Positions 995 through 9,273 of a stretch of 9,273 bases of DNA are shown piece by piece. Source of the stretch: a virus (taxonomy: Duplodnaviria > Heunggongvirae > Uroviricota > Caudoviricetes); IMG/VR virus record IMGVR_UViG_2531839476_000009, positions 1 through 9,273 of that record; one strand, 5' to 3'. Below the pieces are notes generated by a model. It saw nothing but the letters and a program-made list of their open reading frames with translations. It did not search any database and was not told the origin of the DNA. Within the stretch, counting starts at the first letter, position 1, and each line of letters begins with the position of its first letter. The position numbers were made by a program, and so were the translations under genes.

Positions 995-1571
995 CGTCCG
1001 GCGCTGTGCTGGTATCTGTTGCCGTCACCGCGTCAATGTAATCCAGCACAGCGTTAAGTCGGGGGTTTTCTGTCTGCATCAGCTTCCGCCCGGCCTGCAA
1101 TTTCAGTTGAATCAGACTAATGGAAGCCATTGCAGTATCAATCAGTGACTGACGCTGTGCTTCTGCCGCGCCTACTGCGGCGCTATGCTGTGCCTCAGTA
1201 TCTGTCACCCATTTCTCACCATCCCATTCATCGTATGGCGTTAACGGGGCGATAGTGGTTGTATTTTCAGGATAATCACCCGGAGCTGTGATTTCTTTCG
1301 ATTCTCCTGTTTCGGTGCTATAGATGATTTCACCGCGATGGTCTGGCACATATTCCCATGAGTTAAAATCTGCAGAACGGCAGATTGCATAACCAGCTTT
1401 ATGTGTAACTGGTGCATCTAAACAAGAACATGCCGGGATACCGACGCCGACAGCGAGATATTCAGTTGATGTAGAAATATATTCCCGCGTTTCACCATCA
1501 TAATTATAAACGGTAATATCTCCCGCTTTTATGGCAATGAGTTCGCTATTTAATACAGCTTTATTCATCAT
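966..1571 (-). CDS. Tail fibre assembly protein (alternative, for the - orientation fibre tip)
   Basis: N-terminus MMNKAVLNSELIAIKAGDITVYNYDGETREY... and C-terminus ...LNAVLDYIDAV...APDVIWPELP are typical of enterobacterial Tfa/gpG-family proteins. Start overlaps the upstream fibre stop (ATGA). Confidence 0.85.
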   Translation of the reverse strand: MMNKAVLNSELIAIKAGDITVYNYDGETREYISTSTEYLAVGVGIPACSCLDAPVTHKAGYAICRSADFNSWEYVPDHRGEIIYSTETGESKEITAPGDYPENTTTIAPLTPYDEWDGEKWVTDTEAQHSAAVGAAEAQRQSLIDTAMASISLIQLKLQAGRKLMQTENPRLNAVLDYIDAVTATDTSTAPDVIWPELPEA

Positions 1572-2088
1572 GCGGCCCTTACAATATAATTAAAAGCGAT
1601 GTTACGAGGACGAGTTTCTGTACCTACATTTTCACTAATTTCACCATAACGTTTAACACTACGAGAGCTAATAGCTCGTAGTGAGGAAGGCACATTAAGA
1701 CCGGGTTCGTCCGTTTTAACTATTCCCCCGTCACCGTATGTAGCCAGTATTCCTGGGTTTACTCCTTCCCGTGCACTTCCTGCGGCGAGTCCGTCCCCTG
1801 TCCATAATTCCATATAGTGTGCATGGTCCAAAATTGTGTGTGGCTGCCAATTAAGCAAAGCGCGACCAGTATCAATCCCGCGACCGTCATCCCAGCCACG
1901 AATAAATTCACCGCGTAAATCAGGCAATTTATTGGTCGGGTAAGCCTTTGCCAGTTCCGGGTATTCTTCAGCAGAAAAAGCCGCACCATTGCATTTCAGC
2001 CAGCCTGTTGGCGGAGTGGCTGAAGGCCACGGAACAGGCACCCCAACCGGTAATGCAGAGCCTTCTCCCAAACCAACGTTTAAGAAAA
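1568..2088 (-). CDS. Alternative tail-fibre variable C-terminal cassette (promoterless here; would fuse to the constant fibre region after inversion)
   Basis: Reading frame runs through the right crossover site and encodes the same LGLGE junction as the expressed fibre. Contains a tail-collar-like motif (PVGVPVPWPSATPPTGWLKCNGAAFSAEEYPELAKAYP). The ATG at 2116 in the ORF track is unlikely to be a real start. Confidence 0.8.
2063..2088. repeat. Right crossover site for the serine DNA invertase (26 bp)
   Basis: ttctcccaaaccaacgtttaagaaaa, 14/14 identical to the reverse complement of the inner half plus core of the left site. Lies 55 bp upstream of the invertase ATG. Confidence 0.75.
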
Positions 2089-2143
2089 TGCAGAGATTAC
2101 GGCTAACTGGCATCATCCCCGGTTTTTATTCAGGGGATCCATC

Positions 2144-2743
2144 ATGCTTATTGGCTATGTCCGCGTATCAACAAATGACCAGAATACAGAATTGCAGCGT
2201 AACGCGCTGGAGTGCGCAGGATGTGAACTAATTTTTGAAGATAAAATCAGCGGAACGAAATCAGCCAGACCGGGATTGAAAAAACTGATCAGAACGCTAT
2301 CAGAAGGAGATACGCTGGTTGTCTGGAAGCTGGACAGACTGGGCAGAAGTATGAAACACCTGATCACGCTTATTGAGGAATTGCGGGAAAAAGGTGTTAA
2401 TTTCCGTAGTCTGACGGACAGCATTGACACATCAACACCCATGGGGCGTTTCTTTTTTCACGTCATGGGGGCTTTAGCCGAAATGGAACGTGAATTAATT
2501 GTAGAGCGTACACTGGCCGGGCTGGCAGCAGCACGCGCACAAGGACGCATTGGCGGACGTCGCCCGAAGTTGACAAAAGAACAACACGAGCAAATAGCGA
2601 GGTTGATTAAAAACGGTCATGACAGGAAACAACTGGCGATCATTTACGACATCGGCATATCGACGATTTATCGTTATCACCCTGTAGGCGATATACAGGC
2701 TGAAGAAACAACCAGGCAGACTCAGGAAAATGAAAACCGCTAA
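2144..2743 (+). CDS. Site-specific DNA invertase, serine recombinase of the Gin/Pin/Cin/Hin family
   Basis: N-terminus MLIGYVRVSTNDQN... with catalytic-serine motif, ...VVWKLDRLGRS..., ...GRFFFHVMGALAEMERELI...RIGGRRPKLT... and a C-terminal helix-turn-helix region. SD aggggat lies upstream of the ATG. Very close to Gin/Pin as I recall them. Confidence 0.95.
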   Translation: MLIGYVRVSTNDQNTELQRNALECAGCELIFEDKISGTKSARPGLKKLIRTLSEGDTLVVWKLDRLGRSMKHLITLIEELREKGVNFRSLTDSIDTSTPMGRFFFHVMGALAEMERELIVERTLAGLAAARAQGRIGGRRPKLTKEQHEQIARLIKNGHDRKQLAIIYDIGISTIYRYHPVGDIQAEETTRQTQENENR

Positions 2744-2762
2744 TCTGACCATTAGCGGTTTT
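2733..2762. terminator. Probable bidirectional rho-independent terminator between the convergent invertase and gpU genes
   Basis: Perfect 12-bp stem aaaaccgctaat / attagcggtttt with a 6-nt loop. It overlaps the invertase stop codon and has T-rich flanks on both strands. Confidence 0.6.
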
Positions 2763-2769
2763 GCGTTAA

Positions 2770-3264
2770 TCAAAACAGCCCTTTAACGGAGCTGGCCGCG
2801 CTGTTAAGGGATGATGTGACCTTATCTTTGAAGCCGGACAGCATATCACTGAACGATGAGGATTGCAGGCGCTCCCGCAAATCCTCATCACAGCGTTCAA
2901 GGGTCAGTGAAAATTCTATCTTTTTCGCCTTACCGTAGCGATCAAACTCGGAACGGGTCGTATTCGTTCCAGTCAGGACATACATGCCGTAAATCTGCCC
3001 GACGCCATCAATCAAAGGCCAGGGTCGTCCTGTATAAGCCTGCGTGGTCAGCAGCGACAGCGACACTTCGCCACCTGTAATTTCAGGATAAAGCACACCA
3101 GAAAGAACGATGCGATCATCACCTGCACCGATATACTGCCAGCTTGCTGAACGGTTAATGCGTTCATTTTTCACATGCCGCCAGCTTTTGTTTTGCTGTA
3201 ACTGCTGATGCGGCAGCGTGCGCAGCTCAAAAACAAACATGCCGTAGATCATCATCATGGCCAT
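2770..3264 (-). CDS. Tail protein gpU-like
   Basis: 164 aa. N-terminus ...MMMIYGMFVFELRTLPHQQLQ...SWRH... and ...IEFSLTLER... resemble P2 gpU. Lies immediately downstream of the tape-measure gene. Confidence 0.9.
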   Translation of the reverse strand: MAMMMIYGMFVFELRTLPHQQLQQNKSWRHVKNERINRSASWQYIGAGDDRIVLSGVLYPEITGGEVSLSLLTTQAYTGRPWPLIDGVGQIYGMYVLTGTNTTRSEFDRYGKAKKIEFSLTLERCDEDLRERLQSSSFSDMLSGFKDKVTSSLNSAASSVKGLF

Positions 3265-3270
3265 GACTCC

Positions 3271-6086
3271 TCAATCTTTATCGTAAAAACTGCCACGCCC
3301 GGCACGGGCGCGCCGTTCCATTTCTGCCCTGACCATTTCACCGACCAGTTTCGCCAGTTCGCGGGGATTCTGCGTAACAACGTTATGCAGATGAACATGA
3401 ATTTCACCACCAAATTCGGAGGCAACAGGCTCCCGGTTACGGGAAGTTACAGGAACTGATGCCACTGGAGATCGTATAGCCTCCGCCACCGGGCGGGAGC
3501 TGGCCGCAACAACAGTGACCAGCGCCGGAGGCAGCGGAGCCGGGACCACGGGTGTGATATTAATTGCGGGGGCAGGCTTACTGACCTGCGCAATCTTCCG
3601 CTCCTGCCACTCCCCACGAACAGCAAGTGCGCGGGGCAGGTTCTTAAAGACAATATCGCCGGGGCCAATGCGTTTTTTCGTCTCATCAACCAGCTTACCT
3701 GTGTTATCAGCAATTTTGCTGAGTCTGCGTAGCGTCCCGGTATTGCTGTCTGTGAGCGGTTTGTTGTCTTTGGGTTTATCACCTCCGGTGCCATTGCCAT
3801 TTTCCACAGGCTTCGGCGGATTGATTTTCGCAAGGTCCCCCTGAAGCAAGGCAACCTTGTCCTGAAGAATGGCCGCACGCTGTGCGTCTTCGATTTTCTT
3901 GCGCGCCTTTTCCGCTTCATCCGGAAGGACGCCAAGTTTTTCAAGTATCCACGCCAGCGTATCCAGTAGCATTTTTGCAGGTGTCAGAACAAGCTGTAAC
4001 GCACCGCCAAGAACGTTACCGAATATCTCGCCAGCACTGGTACATTTATCCAGCGTTTCCTTGCTGGACTCCATCGGTGACAGCAGCGATTTAAACCAGT
4101 TAAACACCTGGCTGATCCCGCTTCCGATTGCGTCAAAAACAGGACCAAACCGTTCAAAGGTTTCGCGCAACGGGGTCAGCCTTTCCATAATCCCGCTGAA
4201 CACCCCGGCAAAAATGCCCTGATGGGATCCCAGTATTTCCAGATAAGAACGGCAGCTCCGGCAAGCGCAGCCACGATAAGACCAACCGGACTGAACAGCG
4301 CCCCGATAGCGCCTCCCAGTAAAGAAACGGAACCCGTCACCATTCCCCATAGTGCTGGCAGGACCCTGACAGCATTCATTGATCCGGTCAGGAGAGAAAA
4401 ACCAAGACGCAGTTTTGCCAGCGGACCAGCAAGCACACCAATAGCCAGCGACAACGAGCCAACCGTTGCAGTCATTGCCAGCAACGCACCGCCTGCTATC
4501 AGTAGCTGGCGCGTCAGTGCCGGATGGGCCTGCGCCAGCGCCGTCACCCTTGATACCACCCGCGCGAGCCACTGCGTGACAGAACGCAGCGGACCGTCAA
4601 TCAGATCTGCAATGCGGATGCGCAACCCTTCCCATGCACTGCCGAGTGATTTCAGATCGCCGTCAAGGTTGTTGGCCATAACCTTTGCTGTGCGTTCAGC
4701 CTCACCGCGCGCGCCTTCAAGTTCTTTTCTCAGTTTGGGTAAGGAACCGTCACCCGCTGCATCAACGAGCGCCATAAACGATGTGAAAGCCTCTTCTCCG
4801 GCAATGTCCTTAAAGAACGATACCCGGTCAACTTCCCCGTATTTGCGGGTGGCTTTATAAAGGTCGGCCAGCACATCCTCCATCGGGCGCATTTTGCCCC
4901 CGGCATCCGAGACGGACACGCCCAGCTCTTTCAGAGCTTCTGCCGCCGCCTTTGGCGGTGATGCCAGACGAGCCAGGCTGGCACGCATTGCCGTCCCGGC
5001 ATCACTCCCTCTGATGCCCATATTCGCCAGCACGCCAGCCATCGCTGCGGCCTGCTCCAGCGATATTCCCAGCTTACCCGCCACCGGACCTGCATATTTC
5101 ATGGTTTCGCCCAGTGCGCGAAGGTCAGTGTTGGTACGGGTAAACGCTGCGGTGAGTGTGTCACCGACCCGGTCCATCTGGTCAGCAGAAAGGCCGAACT
5201 GCGTCAGGATATTTGAGCCAATATCCGCCGTCTCGCCGAGATCCATGCCGCCAGCCGTTGCCATGCTCAGCACGCCCGGAAGCGCAGCCTGAATGGCCTG
5301 CGGTGTGAAGCCAGCCATTGCAAGAAATGCCTGCCCACTGGCGGCATCGCCTGCGGTGAACTGCGTTTCAGAGCCAAGTTTTAACGCCTGCTCACGCAGC
5401 GCCTTAAACTGCGGGCTGTTCTGGTCGATTCGCGTCAGTGCCTGAACGCGGGACATCTCTTTCCCGAACCCGATCGCAGGCTGCAAAAAACGCCCGGCAG
5501 CATAGCCGCCAGCCGCTGCCGCACCAATTGCCAGCGCACCACCTGTTTTCAGTTTTCCCGCGGTTTCCTGCGCGCGCGAATACCGCTCACGCGCCCGCGT
5601 TACACGCGCAAGCGCCTGCCGTTCGCGTTCAAGCTGGTTGTTGTACTGTTCGGTGCGTCTGATGGCCTGCTGGATGGTGTTATCGCTGCCTGTCAGGGAA
5701 ATGCCGTGGCGTTTCAGCTCTCCGCCAAGCTCCCGCATTTTCTGAATTTCCCGTGTACGCGATTCATTCAGGCGTTCAAGCCGGGTGCTTAACTGCTGCA
5801 TCAGCTTTTGTTGTTTTTCGCTGAGCACTGTACCCGTGCGTTGTAACTGATTAAGGGCGTTAAGCTGGCGTCGTGCTTTCACGACGCCAGCATCCGCTTT
5901 ACTGACAGCGTCGCGGGCGCGCTCAAATGATCGCGCCTGACGCTCGAGATTTTTGATCGCCCCCTGCGTTCGCTGGATGGAGTCACCAAACTGCCCCATC
6001 AGGCGGCGGGCGTTTTCGGCAGGTCGGGTCAGCCTGTCAACGGCGCTGAAAGCGACCCGGATATCAAGAGTCTTCATTGTCTGCAT
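3271..6086 (-). CDS. Tail tape measure protein (gpT-like); reading frame interrupted by a 1-nt frameshift near 4210-4214
   Basis: Two overlapping ORFs (4176-6113 and 3271-4572) in different frames. Both carry tape-measure-like sequence; the upstream piece ends in a hydrophobic segment and the downstream frame only reads sensibly from about 4200. Start is probably the ATG at 6086 or 6077, overlapping the E' stop; the track start at 6113 is a GTG. Confidence 0.85.
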
Positions 6087-6593
6087 TCCCGCTGCGAAGT
6101 GCCGCCCGCTCACGCCAGCTAACCACTTCGCCGGGCGTCATCATGAAGATTTCGGCGGGCGACCAGTTAAAAATGGCGGCAATATCCGCCACAAAGTCTT
6201 CTATGTGCTCAAAGCACACAACCGTGATCAGGCTTCCGTCGCCTGTTCGTTCTTCCCGCCAGAGTCCGCACCGCTCAAAAAATTTACGGCAACCACACAT
6301 AACTGAATAAAGTCACGGGATGCCATTTTTTTGATCGTCACTTCATCCAGTCGCGGTGATGTCACGCGTGACAGCAGCGTAAACATGGATTCCGCTTTCA
6401 GATTCAGCACATCAGACAGCGACAAATCTCGCAGAGATCCAGCCTGCTCAATAGCCCCGGTGATCTCCACATACGTGATTTTTTCGCCGCCTCGCTCAAT
6501 GGGTTGGGTAAGTTTTACGCCACGCTCACTGGTTTCTTTCACAGTGTCAGTAACTACCGTGTTTTCGGTATCGATGTTTTTCGTCTCTTTCAT
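6064..6593 (-). CDS. gpE+E' tail assembly chaperone fusion produced by programmed -1 ribosomal frameshift (about 176 aa)
   Basis: E ORF (6228-6593) and E' ORF (6064-6300) overlap with E' in the -1 frame. The slippery heptamer T TTT TTG sits in the zero frame inside the overlap. Position is immediately upstream of the tape-measure gene, as for P2 E/E' and lambda G/GT. Confidence 0.7.
6228..6593 (-). CDS. gpE-like tail assembly chaperone (non-frameshifted product)
   Basis: 121-aa ORF with SD aaggag 8 nt upstream of the ATG, located between the tube and tape-measure genes. Confidence 0.85.
   Translation of the reverse strand: MKETKNIDTENTVVTDTVKETSERGVKLTQPIERGGEKITYVEITGAIEQAGSLRDLSLSDVLNLKAESMFTLLSRVTSPRLDEVTIKKMASRDFIQLCVVAVNFLSGADSGGKNEQATEA
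6276..6282 (-). promoter_or_regulatory. Slippery heptamer T TTT TTG for the E/E' -1 frameshift
   Basis: Minus-strand sequence aaT TTT TTG agc read in the E frame as N-F-L-S; after a -1 slip the E' frame reads F-F-E-R-C-G-L. Confidence 0.7.
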
Positions 6594-6614
6594 CAGGAAA
6601 CTCCTTTCAGTCAG

Positions 6615-6635
6615 AGGCGACGCACTGCGTCGCCT
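6615..6635 (-). other. Intercistronic hairpin between tube and gpE genes (possible mRNA-stability or attenuator element)
   Basis: aggcgacgc-act-gcgtcgcct, a 9-bp perfect stem with no following U-tract on the coding strand. Confidence 0.35.
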
Positions 6636-6647
6636 GCATATTACTTA

Positions 6648-7159
6648 TCAGCCAAGCCCAAGCGCGGAACGGATGCGATCGGGCACAATGTCCTTGCCGT
6701 CCTTCCGGTAGATGTGGTTCAACAGGTCGATTTCCCACAGCGGGCGATCGTTAACGCTCAGCTTGTAGTAGGTGTTTTTGACAGCGTAAGTGTGTGATGT
6801 GGCTTCGCCCTGTTTGGCTTCCCCCATATCAATTTCCGTCACACGCCCGCGCATCTCGATTTCATACAGATCGCTTTCTGCATCGGTGTAGTATTCACCC
6901 GCAAAACGCAGCAGCGTGCCGTCAATCGTGCCGCCATACTTAAGGAACAGCTCACGAACTGCGCCCCCCATGACAAAGCTCGCATCAAGCGCGGAGTCAT
7001 CCAGGCCGAGATCAATACTTACCGCTCCCATCATGCCACACCCCGGTAGCTGTCGGTTTTGCGCGTCAGCTTAGGCAAAGTGACGGACGTCACCTTACCC
7101 ACTTCGTTTTCACCATCCACAAACAGCGTAAAAAAGCGAAGATGTTTTGGCACAGCCAT
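6648..7159 (-). CDS. Tail tube protein (FII-like); reading frame interrupted by a 1-nt frameshift near 7038-7045
   Basis: The 128-aa ORF (6648-7034) contains ...DLGLDD...LRFAG...EIEMRGR..EIDMGEAKQGE..., resembling P2 FII but without its N-terminus. The missing N-terminus (MAVPKHLRFFTLFVDGENEVGKVTSVTLPKLTRKTDSYRG) is encoded in another frame, starting at an ATG at 7159-7157 that overlaps the sheath stop (TGATG). Confidence 0.85.
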
Positions 7160-8343
7160 CAGGCACCTCCCAGCACCGCAAATGCGGGGCCAAAGAATTC
7201 ATCAGTAAACGTCTGGTAAAGCTCCATGTCTTCCAGCGGGGGAACAGGCGTATATTTGTAGCGAATACGCACACGCCCCTGACGTAAATCCGTGGTGCTG
7301 TTATCCACCACGTCATACCAGCACTCCGCGCCAATCAGTTTCCCGGCAGTAACCAGTGAATCCAGTTTTGCCCTGATGGCACTGATAACATCCTTCACGT
7401 TCGCAGGCGTCAGTGGACTGTCGATGGTTTCAAACTGCGCTTCCGCAATTGAATCAGCCAGCACCTGTGCGGTTCGGGTATACACCTCAAAGATGTAGGC
7501 GTTCGTTTCCGGTGTGCGGTTGCCCCAGAAGCGGAACCCGTTGCGACGAATAATGGTCGTGATTTCTTTGTTGTTGAGGCTGTTGGCATCGCTGTCTTCG
7601 GCCTGCAACGACCAGAACACTTGCCTCGACATCCCCAGCACATTTTTAACCGGAACGTTGGACAGTGATTTGTGCCACCCCTGCTCAATGGTCAATGTAC
7701 GCACGAAGGCCGCACGCATAAGCAGGCGCGGGGAACGTTCGTTTTTGCCACTTTTCGGGTTGTAGGCGATGAAGTCCGGCCATAAGAGCATCACCTCACG
7801 TTCGTTGAATTTCTGGCGGTAGGTAATCGCCTCAGCCATCGTGTTACAGCCGTGACAGGAGGCATACACAAACGCGCGCAGTTTACCTGCAATCACGCAC
7901 ACGGATTTTGTTACCGCCTCCGTGTCCAGCTCCGGCGCGGCCAGAATACGCGGACGGTATCCGATGCTTTCATCCTGCTCTGCAACAAGCAGCGCATACA
8001 TCCCCGTATAGCTGCCGTCATCCTCAGAACCACCGATAACCAGTTGATCCTGCGTTTTTCCGTCTTCTTCTTTGTGTTCAGCCACGCGAACGACGATCAC
8101 CTTTGTGCTCACCTGGTCTGCGATGGCCTTAAGCGCACGATAAAGCGTCCCCGTTGTTCCGCATTTTCCCAGCACGTCATTGACGCGGGTCAGCAGTGTG
8201 GGCTTGTTCAGCGGGAACAGCTCCGCGTCCGCATCATCCGCCGTTGCCACGATACCGATAACACTGGAATCAACATCATTAATCGCTGTTACCAGGTCGG
8301 TACTTTCCGTAACACGGGCACCATGAAAACGAGTTTCACTCAT
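7159..8343 (-). CDS. Tail sheath protein (FI-like)
   Basis: 394 aa. Motifs ...FPLNKP..., ...RILA.P.LDT..., ...LLWPDF..., ...EQGWHK.LSN..., ...IRRNGFRFWGNRT..., ...YTRTAQV..., ...YKYTPVPPLE... resemble P2 FI. SD aagggg lies upstream of the ATG. Confidence 0.95.
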   Translation of the reverse strand: MSETRFHGARVTESTDLVTAINDVDSSVIGIVATADDADAELFPLNKPTLLTRVNDVLGKCGTTGTLYRALKAIADQVSTKVIVVRVAEHKEEDGKTQDQLVIGGSEDDGSYTGMYALLVAEQDESIGYRPRILAAPELDTEAVTKSVCVIAGKLRAFVYASCHGCNTMAEAITYRQKFNEREVMLLWPDFIAYNPKSGKNERSPRLLMRAAFVRTLTIEQGWHKSLSNVPVKNVLGMSRQVFWSLQAEDSDANSLNNKEITTIIRRNGFRFWGNRTPETNAYIFEVYTRTAQVLADSIAEAQFETIDSPLTPANVKDVISAIRAKLDSLVTAGKLIGAECWYDVVDNSTTDLRQGRVRIRYKYTPVPPLEDMELYQTFTDEFFGPAFAVLGGA

Positions 8344-8500
8344 AGCTTCAGCCCCTTGTATCCGTTAAATGATTCGGCAACAATCATCACCCAGCACGCG
8401 CGTAATCTCACCCCTGCGCCGTTCTCCCGCCACCGCGACAACAAAAAGCAGTAACCCCCTCCGCACGCACATGCGACCATGCCGCACAGGGAGGGAACAG
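8344..8500. promoter_or_regulatory. Divergent intergenic region between sheath (-) and gpD-like (+) genes; presumed promoter region
   Basis: 157-bp non-coding gap between two divergent starts, each with a good SD. No confident -35/-10 or Ogr-type late promoter motif could be placed by eye. Confidence 0.3.
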
Positions 8501-9241
8501 ATGACCGACACCACCATGCAATTGCTCAGTCAGGGCACAGACCCCGTGAAAATGCCGGATTTTGATATTCTCGCGGAGGGTAAAACGCTGTCAGGCGTGG
8601 CAGAGCGCCTGATGAGCCTGTCACTGACCGACAACCGGGGATTTGAAGCGGACCAGCTCACCATCACGCTGGATGATGCGGATGGTCAGTTGCAGCTACC
8701 GCCACGGGGCGCGCGCCTGACGGTTCTCATTGGCTGGAAAGGAGAACCGCTGACAGAAAAAGGCACTTACATTGTTGATGAAATCGCTCACGAAGGACCG
8801 CCGGACAGGCTGACTGTTTCAGCCAGAAGCGCAGATTTTCGGGATGAATTTAACGTTAAACGTGAGGTGTCCTGGCATGATGTGACCGTTGAGCGTGTGG
8901 TATCCGCCATCGCTCATCGGTATGGTCTGAAACCGCAAATCAGCGAAATGCTGATGGATATCGAAATCGACCACGCCGACCAGACCGAAGAAAGCGACAT
9001 GTCCTTCCTTACGCGCATGGCGGAAATGCTGGGCGCAATCACCACGGTAAAAAGCGGTAATCTGTTATTCATCATGCCCGGTGGTGGCGTGAACGCACAG
9101 GGCCAGCCGTTGCCATCGTTCGCCATCACACGCAGCAGCGGCGATCGCCATCAGTTCCGCATTGCTGACCGCGAGGCGTATACGGGGGTACGCGCTTACT
9201 GGCTTGATCTTAATTACGGGAAAAAGAAAAAGTCAGCGTGA
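8501..9241 (+). CDS. gpD-like tail protein (late control gene D family), N-terminal 246 aa; possibly truncated
   Basis: ATG at 8501 preceded by SD gggaggg. Motif ...LSLTDNRGFEADQLTITLDDADGQLQLPPRGARLTVLIGWKG... is typical of gpD/VgrG-type N-terminal domains. The in-frame Met at 8369 in the ORF track lacks an RBS. Confidence 0.8.
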   Translation: MTDTTMQLLSQGTDPVKMPDFDILAEGKTLSGVAERLMSLSLTDNRGFEADQLTITLDDADGQLQLPPRGARLTVLIGWKGEPLTEKGTYIVDEIAHEGPPDRLTVSARSADFRDEFNVKREVSWHDVTVERVVSAIAHRYGLKPQISEMLMDIEIDHADQTEESDMSFLTRMAEMLGAITTVKSGNLLFIMPGGGVNAQGQPLPSFAITRSSGDRHQFRIADREAYTGVRAYWLDLNYGKKKKSA

Positions 9242-9273
9242 AACGCCGCAAACCGCCAAAACCGAAAAAGAGA

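Follow-up and report, generated by a model that had tools for sequence, protein, structure and literature searches.

The tail genes of P88-like prophages follow the order sheath, tube, gpE, GpE-domain ORF, tape measure, gpU and invertase. In P2 the gpE/gpE+E' pair, the analogue of lambda G/GT, has a T-rich slippery heptamer and immediately precedes the tape-measure gene. The stretch of DNA analysed here (9,273 nt, hereafter the window) has the gene order of the P88-like prophages, and its tape-measure gene is the same gene as that of the P88-like tape measures (WP_053885562.1; YP_009113088.1 of phage P88), with DNA identities of 96.5–100%. The window corresponds to contig AKNI01000029.1 over its entire length, in reverse complement, from the draft assembly GCA_000268205.1 of E. 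coli EPEC C342-62, and its tape-measure gene is split in two by a single-base frame break.

Profile searches of the minus-strand products gave, in gene order, Phage_sheath (PF04984), Phage_tube (PF04985), a 121-aa gpE-like protein, a Phage_P2_GpE ORF, PhageMin_Tail and Phage_P2_GpU, after which the DNA invertase and the invertible tail-fibre genes follow. Judged by these assignments, the genes form a contractile-tail module of P2-like phage origin, and DNA searches place the prophage among the P88-like members of Xuanwuvirus, Peduoviridae. These searches returned 13 phage records at 91–98% identity and 1377 E. coli records, which come from 1375 of the 5426 complete genomes; the prophage family is very common in E. 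coli, and its tape-measure gene is an ordinary one. The 633-aa N-terminal product matched PF10145 PhageMin_Tail with 198 bits (cut-off 33.2; 1.8e-58), and the intact homologue equivalent to the repaired protein matched NCBIfam TIGR01760 tape_meas_TP901 with 290 bits (cut-off 28.8; 2.2e-86). In the same kind of profile search, the C-terminal fragment alone gave no family match. The split gene is preceded by the sheath and tube genes and the frameshifted chaperone pair and followed by gpU; its position and profile matches identify it as the tail tape-measure gene, the equivalent of P2 gpT.

Beyond gpU, the tail-fibre/fibre-assembly segment at 207–2079 has the opposite orientation to that in E. 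coli WS3294A. It is flanked by 18-nt inverted repeats (207–224 and 2062–2079; 94% complementary) and adjoins a resolvase-family DNA invertase gene (2144..2743, plus strand). From its repeats and neighbourhood, the segment is classed as a Gin/Cin-type host-range switch that was captured in the other state.

The counterpart of the P2 gpE/gpE+E' site is a T_TTT_TTG heptamer at 6276–6282 (minus strand; AAT TTT TTG), which is in register with the zero frame and close to the end of the gpE-like gene. Shifting by −1 at this site joins gpE to PF06528 Phage_P2_GpE, and the fused frame terminates just past the start of the tape measure; by motif, register and location it is a genuine programmed −1 frameshift site of the P2 tail-chaperone type. 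A second T_TTT_TTG is located inside the tape-measure gene at 5484–5490 (minus strand; R-F-L, codons ~196–198), also in a −1-competent register. The 16-mer around it was found in 92 of 131 fetched loci, and its −1 frame stops after 26 codons. Altogether the window holds three copies of T_TTT_TTG versus 2.8 expected, which is chance level.

The upstream tape-measure ORF (6113..4176, minus strand) terminates in ...KYWDPIRAFLPGCSAGLWKG*, with a TGA stop at 4178–4176, exactly where the first-pass annotation had placed its end. As encoded, the fragment closes with ...KYWDPIRAF followed by LPGCSAGLWKG*; the 633-aa product consists of native residues 1–622 and these 11 out-of-frame residues, and residues 623–935 are lost. 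The downstream frame (closed at 3271) reads as nonsense upstream of ~4220 and continues as ...GIFAGVFSGIMERLTPLRETFERFGPVFDAIG..., and its translation agrees with the earlier statement that it makes sense from the junction on. Across the junction the coding strand reads CCC ATC AGG GCA TTT TTG CCG GGG TGT, in which the previously noted run of five Ts (coding strand cattttt) occupies 4214–4210 (Table 1). The downstream frame begins at GCC (4209), a single base ahead (5') of where the next zero-frame codon starts; thus, a −1 shift connects the two halves, in keeping with one missing base. Among the called genes, the C-terminal part was given a spurious GTG start at 4203, yielding 310 aa. As deposited, the locus holds two ORFs that part at codon 622–623 instead of the single long ORF of 935 aa seen in the lineage.

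Table 1. Positions in the window of the tape-measure frame break, of related tail genes and of single-base indels; the last column gives the state in relatives.
Feature	Position	Strand	Description	State in relatives
T5 run breaking the frame	4210..4214	-	coding strand cattttt-g	T6 = codons TTT TTT (F622 F623)
N-terminal tape-measure fragment	4176..6077	-	633 aa, GenBank EIQ70427.1	
C-terminal tape-measure part	3271..4209	-	312 codons (A624-D935) + stop, -1 frame versus upstream part	
Whole tape-measure gene	3271..6077	-	2807 nt	2808 nt
Tail-chaperone ORF, gpE-like	6593..6228	-	121 aa	
Tail-chaperone ORF, GpE domain	6300..6064	-	PF06528	
Split tail tube gene	6648..7159	-	pieces of 42 aa (7034-7159) and 128 aa (6648-7034)	
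Private indel, gpD-like gene	9271		CC->C (reverse-complement alignment)	non-window state in 75/75
Private indel, gpD-like gene	9232		T6->T5 (reverse-complement alignment; gene reads A)	non-window state in 84/87
Private indel, sheath	7740		AAA->AA	non-window state in 97/100
Private indel, sheath	7688		T->TT	non-window state in 100/100
Private indel, tube	7040		GG->G	non-window state in 96/108, two tallied gap placements
Private indel, tape measure	4215		T6->T5	non-window state in 129/129 (~120 selected on T6)
Indel, Gp53-like tail-fibre gene, contig edge	6		GGG->GGGG	versus both relatives covering it (L001, L006)

Addition of one T to the run gave ...IRAFFAGVFSGIMERL... and one uninterrupted ORF. 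Read from the ATG at 6077 (MKTLDIR...), the start used in all annotated relatives, the repaired protein comprises 935 aa plus stop and is identical at all residues to WP_053885562.1 from E. coli WS3294A. The proposal that one additional T would restore a continuous protein is therefore supported by an exact match, while the length of ~947 aa that accompanied it has to be corrected to 935 aa, as it had been counted from the upstream GTG at 6113 instead of the ATG at 6077. Because the N-terminal part matches PF10145/TIGR01760 and the repaired protein has an intact homologue of 100% identity, the two halves are, on these alignments, parts of one tape-measure protein, and chance reading does not explain the break.

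The closest match to the gene was found in E. coli WS3294A (NZ_CP035819.1), where 2844 nt aligned over the 2843-nt query at a reported identity of 100.0%, and this copy is annotated as a single 2808-nt gene (WP_053885562.1). A base-by-base comparison of the tape-measure genes revealed 0 mismatches and 1 gap. Over the longer stretch from 2062 to 7188 of the window there were 0 substitutions and two one-base gaps (T6->T5 at 4215 and GG->G at 7040). The alignment to intact homologues that had been suggested as a check showed one continuous 2808-nt gene with T6 across the junction in all annotated close relatives inspected. An intact 2808-nt tape-measure ORF was present in 103 of 107 relatives aligned over the full length (89.6–100% identity), and the gene was broken in the remaining 4, each at a different codon (224, 381, 877 and 933). 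No homologue had two separate genes at the position of the break in the window; such homologues would, according to the first-pass annotation, have spoken against its reading.

The T5 allele was searched for more widely. The 5426 complete E. coli genomes yielded 1199 matching records, in which an 81-mer with T5 had no exact match (best 98.8%, with a single gap) and no polymorphism in T-run length was seen; the corresponding 82-mer with T6 was exact in 443 records. A 27-mer with T5 gave 0 matches in IMG/VR viral contigs and 0 matches in JGI metagenome contigs, and the T6 27-mer gave at least 120 in IMG/VR. An exact look-up of the 633-aa product among ~15 billion proteins returned one contig, the window's own, and in its 90%-identity cluster of 13,557 members, 10 of the 15 members listed have 935 aa. 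The extra base at 4215 was present in all 129 aligned relatives, a count that is partly circular because ~120 of them were fetched with the T6 pattern.

The tape-measure lesion is one of several in the contig. In the comparison with nine annotated relatives (L001–L009), one and the same set of one-base indels sets the window apart from each of them wherever the alignments cover the sites. Since BLAST may set a gap at one end of a run or the other, private indels were tallied by summing adjacent gap positions. The tally gave six private indels of one base (4215, 7040, 7688, 7740, 9232 and 9271), for which, at the tallied gap placements, the window's state is not shared by 89–100% of 75–129 aligned relatives; the five tallies other than that at 4215 are independent of the T6 selection. 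The insertion at window position 6 is probably a seventh indel error. The window bases unmatched in any relative amounted to 3 substitutions in 7654 assessed positions, giving 6–7 private indels versus 3 private substitutions in the contig.

The lesions are spread over four tail genes, namely those for the gpD-like protein, sheath, tube and tape measure. The gpD-like (late-control-D / VgrG-like) gene (~8500..9241, plus strand) stops at 9241 and does not run off the contig end. In the sheath gene (8343..7159, minus strand), the deletion at 7740 and the insertion at 7688 are 52 nt apart and compensate each other; the ORF stays open, and at residues 203–220 (18 residues) the TFPASAYACGLRAYIDH-type consensus is replaced by RSPRLLMRAAFVRTLTI. 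The tube gene has lost one G near 7040, which changes GGGGTGGTGG to GGGGTGTGG, and both of its pieces match PF04985, at profile positions 1–38 and 40–165. The tape-measure break had been likened to an undercall in this tube gene. The likeness holds as to class, both being private one-base losses, and fails as to the run involved, because the tube site is a two-base run and no long homopolymer. Two other contigs with a 128-aa tube fragment were considered as cases of a real tube frameshift and rejected, the one on account of Ns in the scaffold beside an intact GGGGTGGTGG, the other on account of a contig edge. The similarity of the window to WS3294A is mosaic, with 0 mismatches over 2062–7188 versus 43 over 7189–9273. 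The boundary at 7189, between sheath and tube, suggests a recombination junction or a consensus that was collapsed from two related prophages.

Taken together, the split of the tape-measure gene is most probably a consensus indel error that arose in sequencing or assembly, and we infer a technical rather than a mutational cause. One T of a T6 run would have been under-called in the draft-genome contig; the real DNA would most likely contain the tape-measure gene in one unbroken piece of 2808 nt, coding for 935 aa. Positions 4210–4214 would then have no function, and the annotated CDSs of 633 aa and 310 aa would represent halves of one gene. The lesion was found in a single assembly, and its repair restores identity to the relatives. 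A real, very recent and likewise private one-base deletion, which would have turned the tape-measure gene into a pseudogene of the prophage, is the main alternative and appears unlikely. Its product would have 622 native and 11 aberrant residues and would lack 313 residues at the C-terminus; combined with the frameshift in the tube gene, such a deletion would abolish tail assembly by the prophage. For it speak the presence of the frame break in the deposited sequence, the nature of T6 runs as natural hotspots of replication slippage, and the common decay of prophage structural genes, those of the tail by frameshift, which also counts against a consensus error. Moreover, ~4% of the related loci (the 4 of 107) are broken in the tape measure too, though these may be errors as well, and the scatter of their breaks over four codons was counted for an error in the window. 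For several of the private indels the run measures 1–3 bases, which is atypical of the classic long-homopolymer error and likewise argues against an artefact. The balance between indels and substitutions points the other way. In mutation-accumulation studies of E. coli, substitutions outnumber spontaneous single-base indels roughly ten to one, and such indels are purged from coding DNA faster than substitutions. An excess of private indels of 2:1 thus fits an error profile and not evolution, and two frameshifts with 0 substitutions over ~5.1 kb versus the nearest relative fit an indel-prone consensus and not divergence. In addition, the compensated indel pair in the sheath gene would have no selective reason if tube and tape measure were already dead, and selection would hardly maintain a pattern that hits four genes and scrambles 18 sheath residues. 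The T5 allele was found nowhere else in E. coli, IMG/VR, JGI or the protein look-up. Between the truncation and the undercall that the first-pass annotation had left as options, the other private single-base indels in the contig favour the undercall. The sequencing platform was not found in the literature by strain name or by assembly/WGS accession; drafts of that period were often pyrosequenced, a circumstance that was not used as evidence.

A functional element at the break, be it a programmed −1 ribosomal frameshift, transcriptional slippage or a phase-variable homopolymer controlling the synthesis of the full-length tape measure, is highly improbable. The candidate slippage stretch GCATTTTTGCCGGGG contains A_TTT_TTG in the correct register, with 6 of 7 bases equal to the chaperone heptamer T_TTT_TTG 2 kb upstream, and a shift of −1 would bring the two frames together again. 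However, despite the right register the first heptamer position deviates from X_XXY_YYZ, which would prevent complete re-pairing by the P-site tRNA. The site is also not conserved, as the relatives have T6 and a continuous frame there, and the E. coli, IMG/VR and JGI collections yielded no further T5 copy. For the 89 nt downstream, the minimum free energy is −25.8 kcal/mol versus a shuffle mean of −26.4 (z = 0.17), i.e., no unusual fold. With the site absent from the relatives and nothing folding unusually downstream, a programmed event is unsupported, and a programmed frameshift at 4210–4214 was rejected on motif, conservation and downstream folding; the earlier remark that conserved slippery-site features are lacking agrees with this rejection. 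Runs of T5–T6 are far shorter than those known for transcriptional slippage or phase variation, and a phase-variable run is further contradicted by its constant length among strains (5–6 nt; 443 exact T6 82-mers and zero T5 81-mers). A combination, in which a real deletion is mitigated by low-level −1 slippage at A_TTT_TTG that would provide a little full-length tape measure with F623L, has a very slim chance of being correct; the prophage would in that case count as leaky in its tail production, not as dead.

A consensus error matters mainly for annotation hygiene, since GenBank lists two CDSs (EIQ70427.1 with 633 aa and its 310-aa neighbour) for one gene. The lesions of the contig, comprising the split tube gene, the scrambled sheath stretch, the truncated gpD gene and the tape measure, are best treated as probable errors, which is relevant when the intactness of prophages is judged or protein families are built. 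If the deletion were true, the contig would merely add one more defective P88-like prophage. Neither the artefact nor a mutation implies a new mechanism, and the finding raises no biological question.

In comparison with the P88-like tape measures, the copy in the window differs by the absence of one T of the T6 run, by which the gene is read as two ORFs. Unlike the site of P2 gpE/gpE+E', the tape-measure break is non-conserved, has an imperfect heptamer and is followed by no downstream structure. Escherichia phage 520873 (NC_049344.1) presents a comparable case, in which the same gene is also given as two CDSs (gp41 and gp40; 1537..2682 and 2730..4343 of locus L002). The phage is one of the four relatives with a broken tape measure. 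There, the two CDSs result from a one-base deletion in a GGG run, and the break lies elsewhere, at the equivalent of window ~5010 (codon 381), with the T6 kept at the equivalent of 4210–4214. The split in phage 520873 is probably itself an error or a pseudogene.
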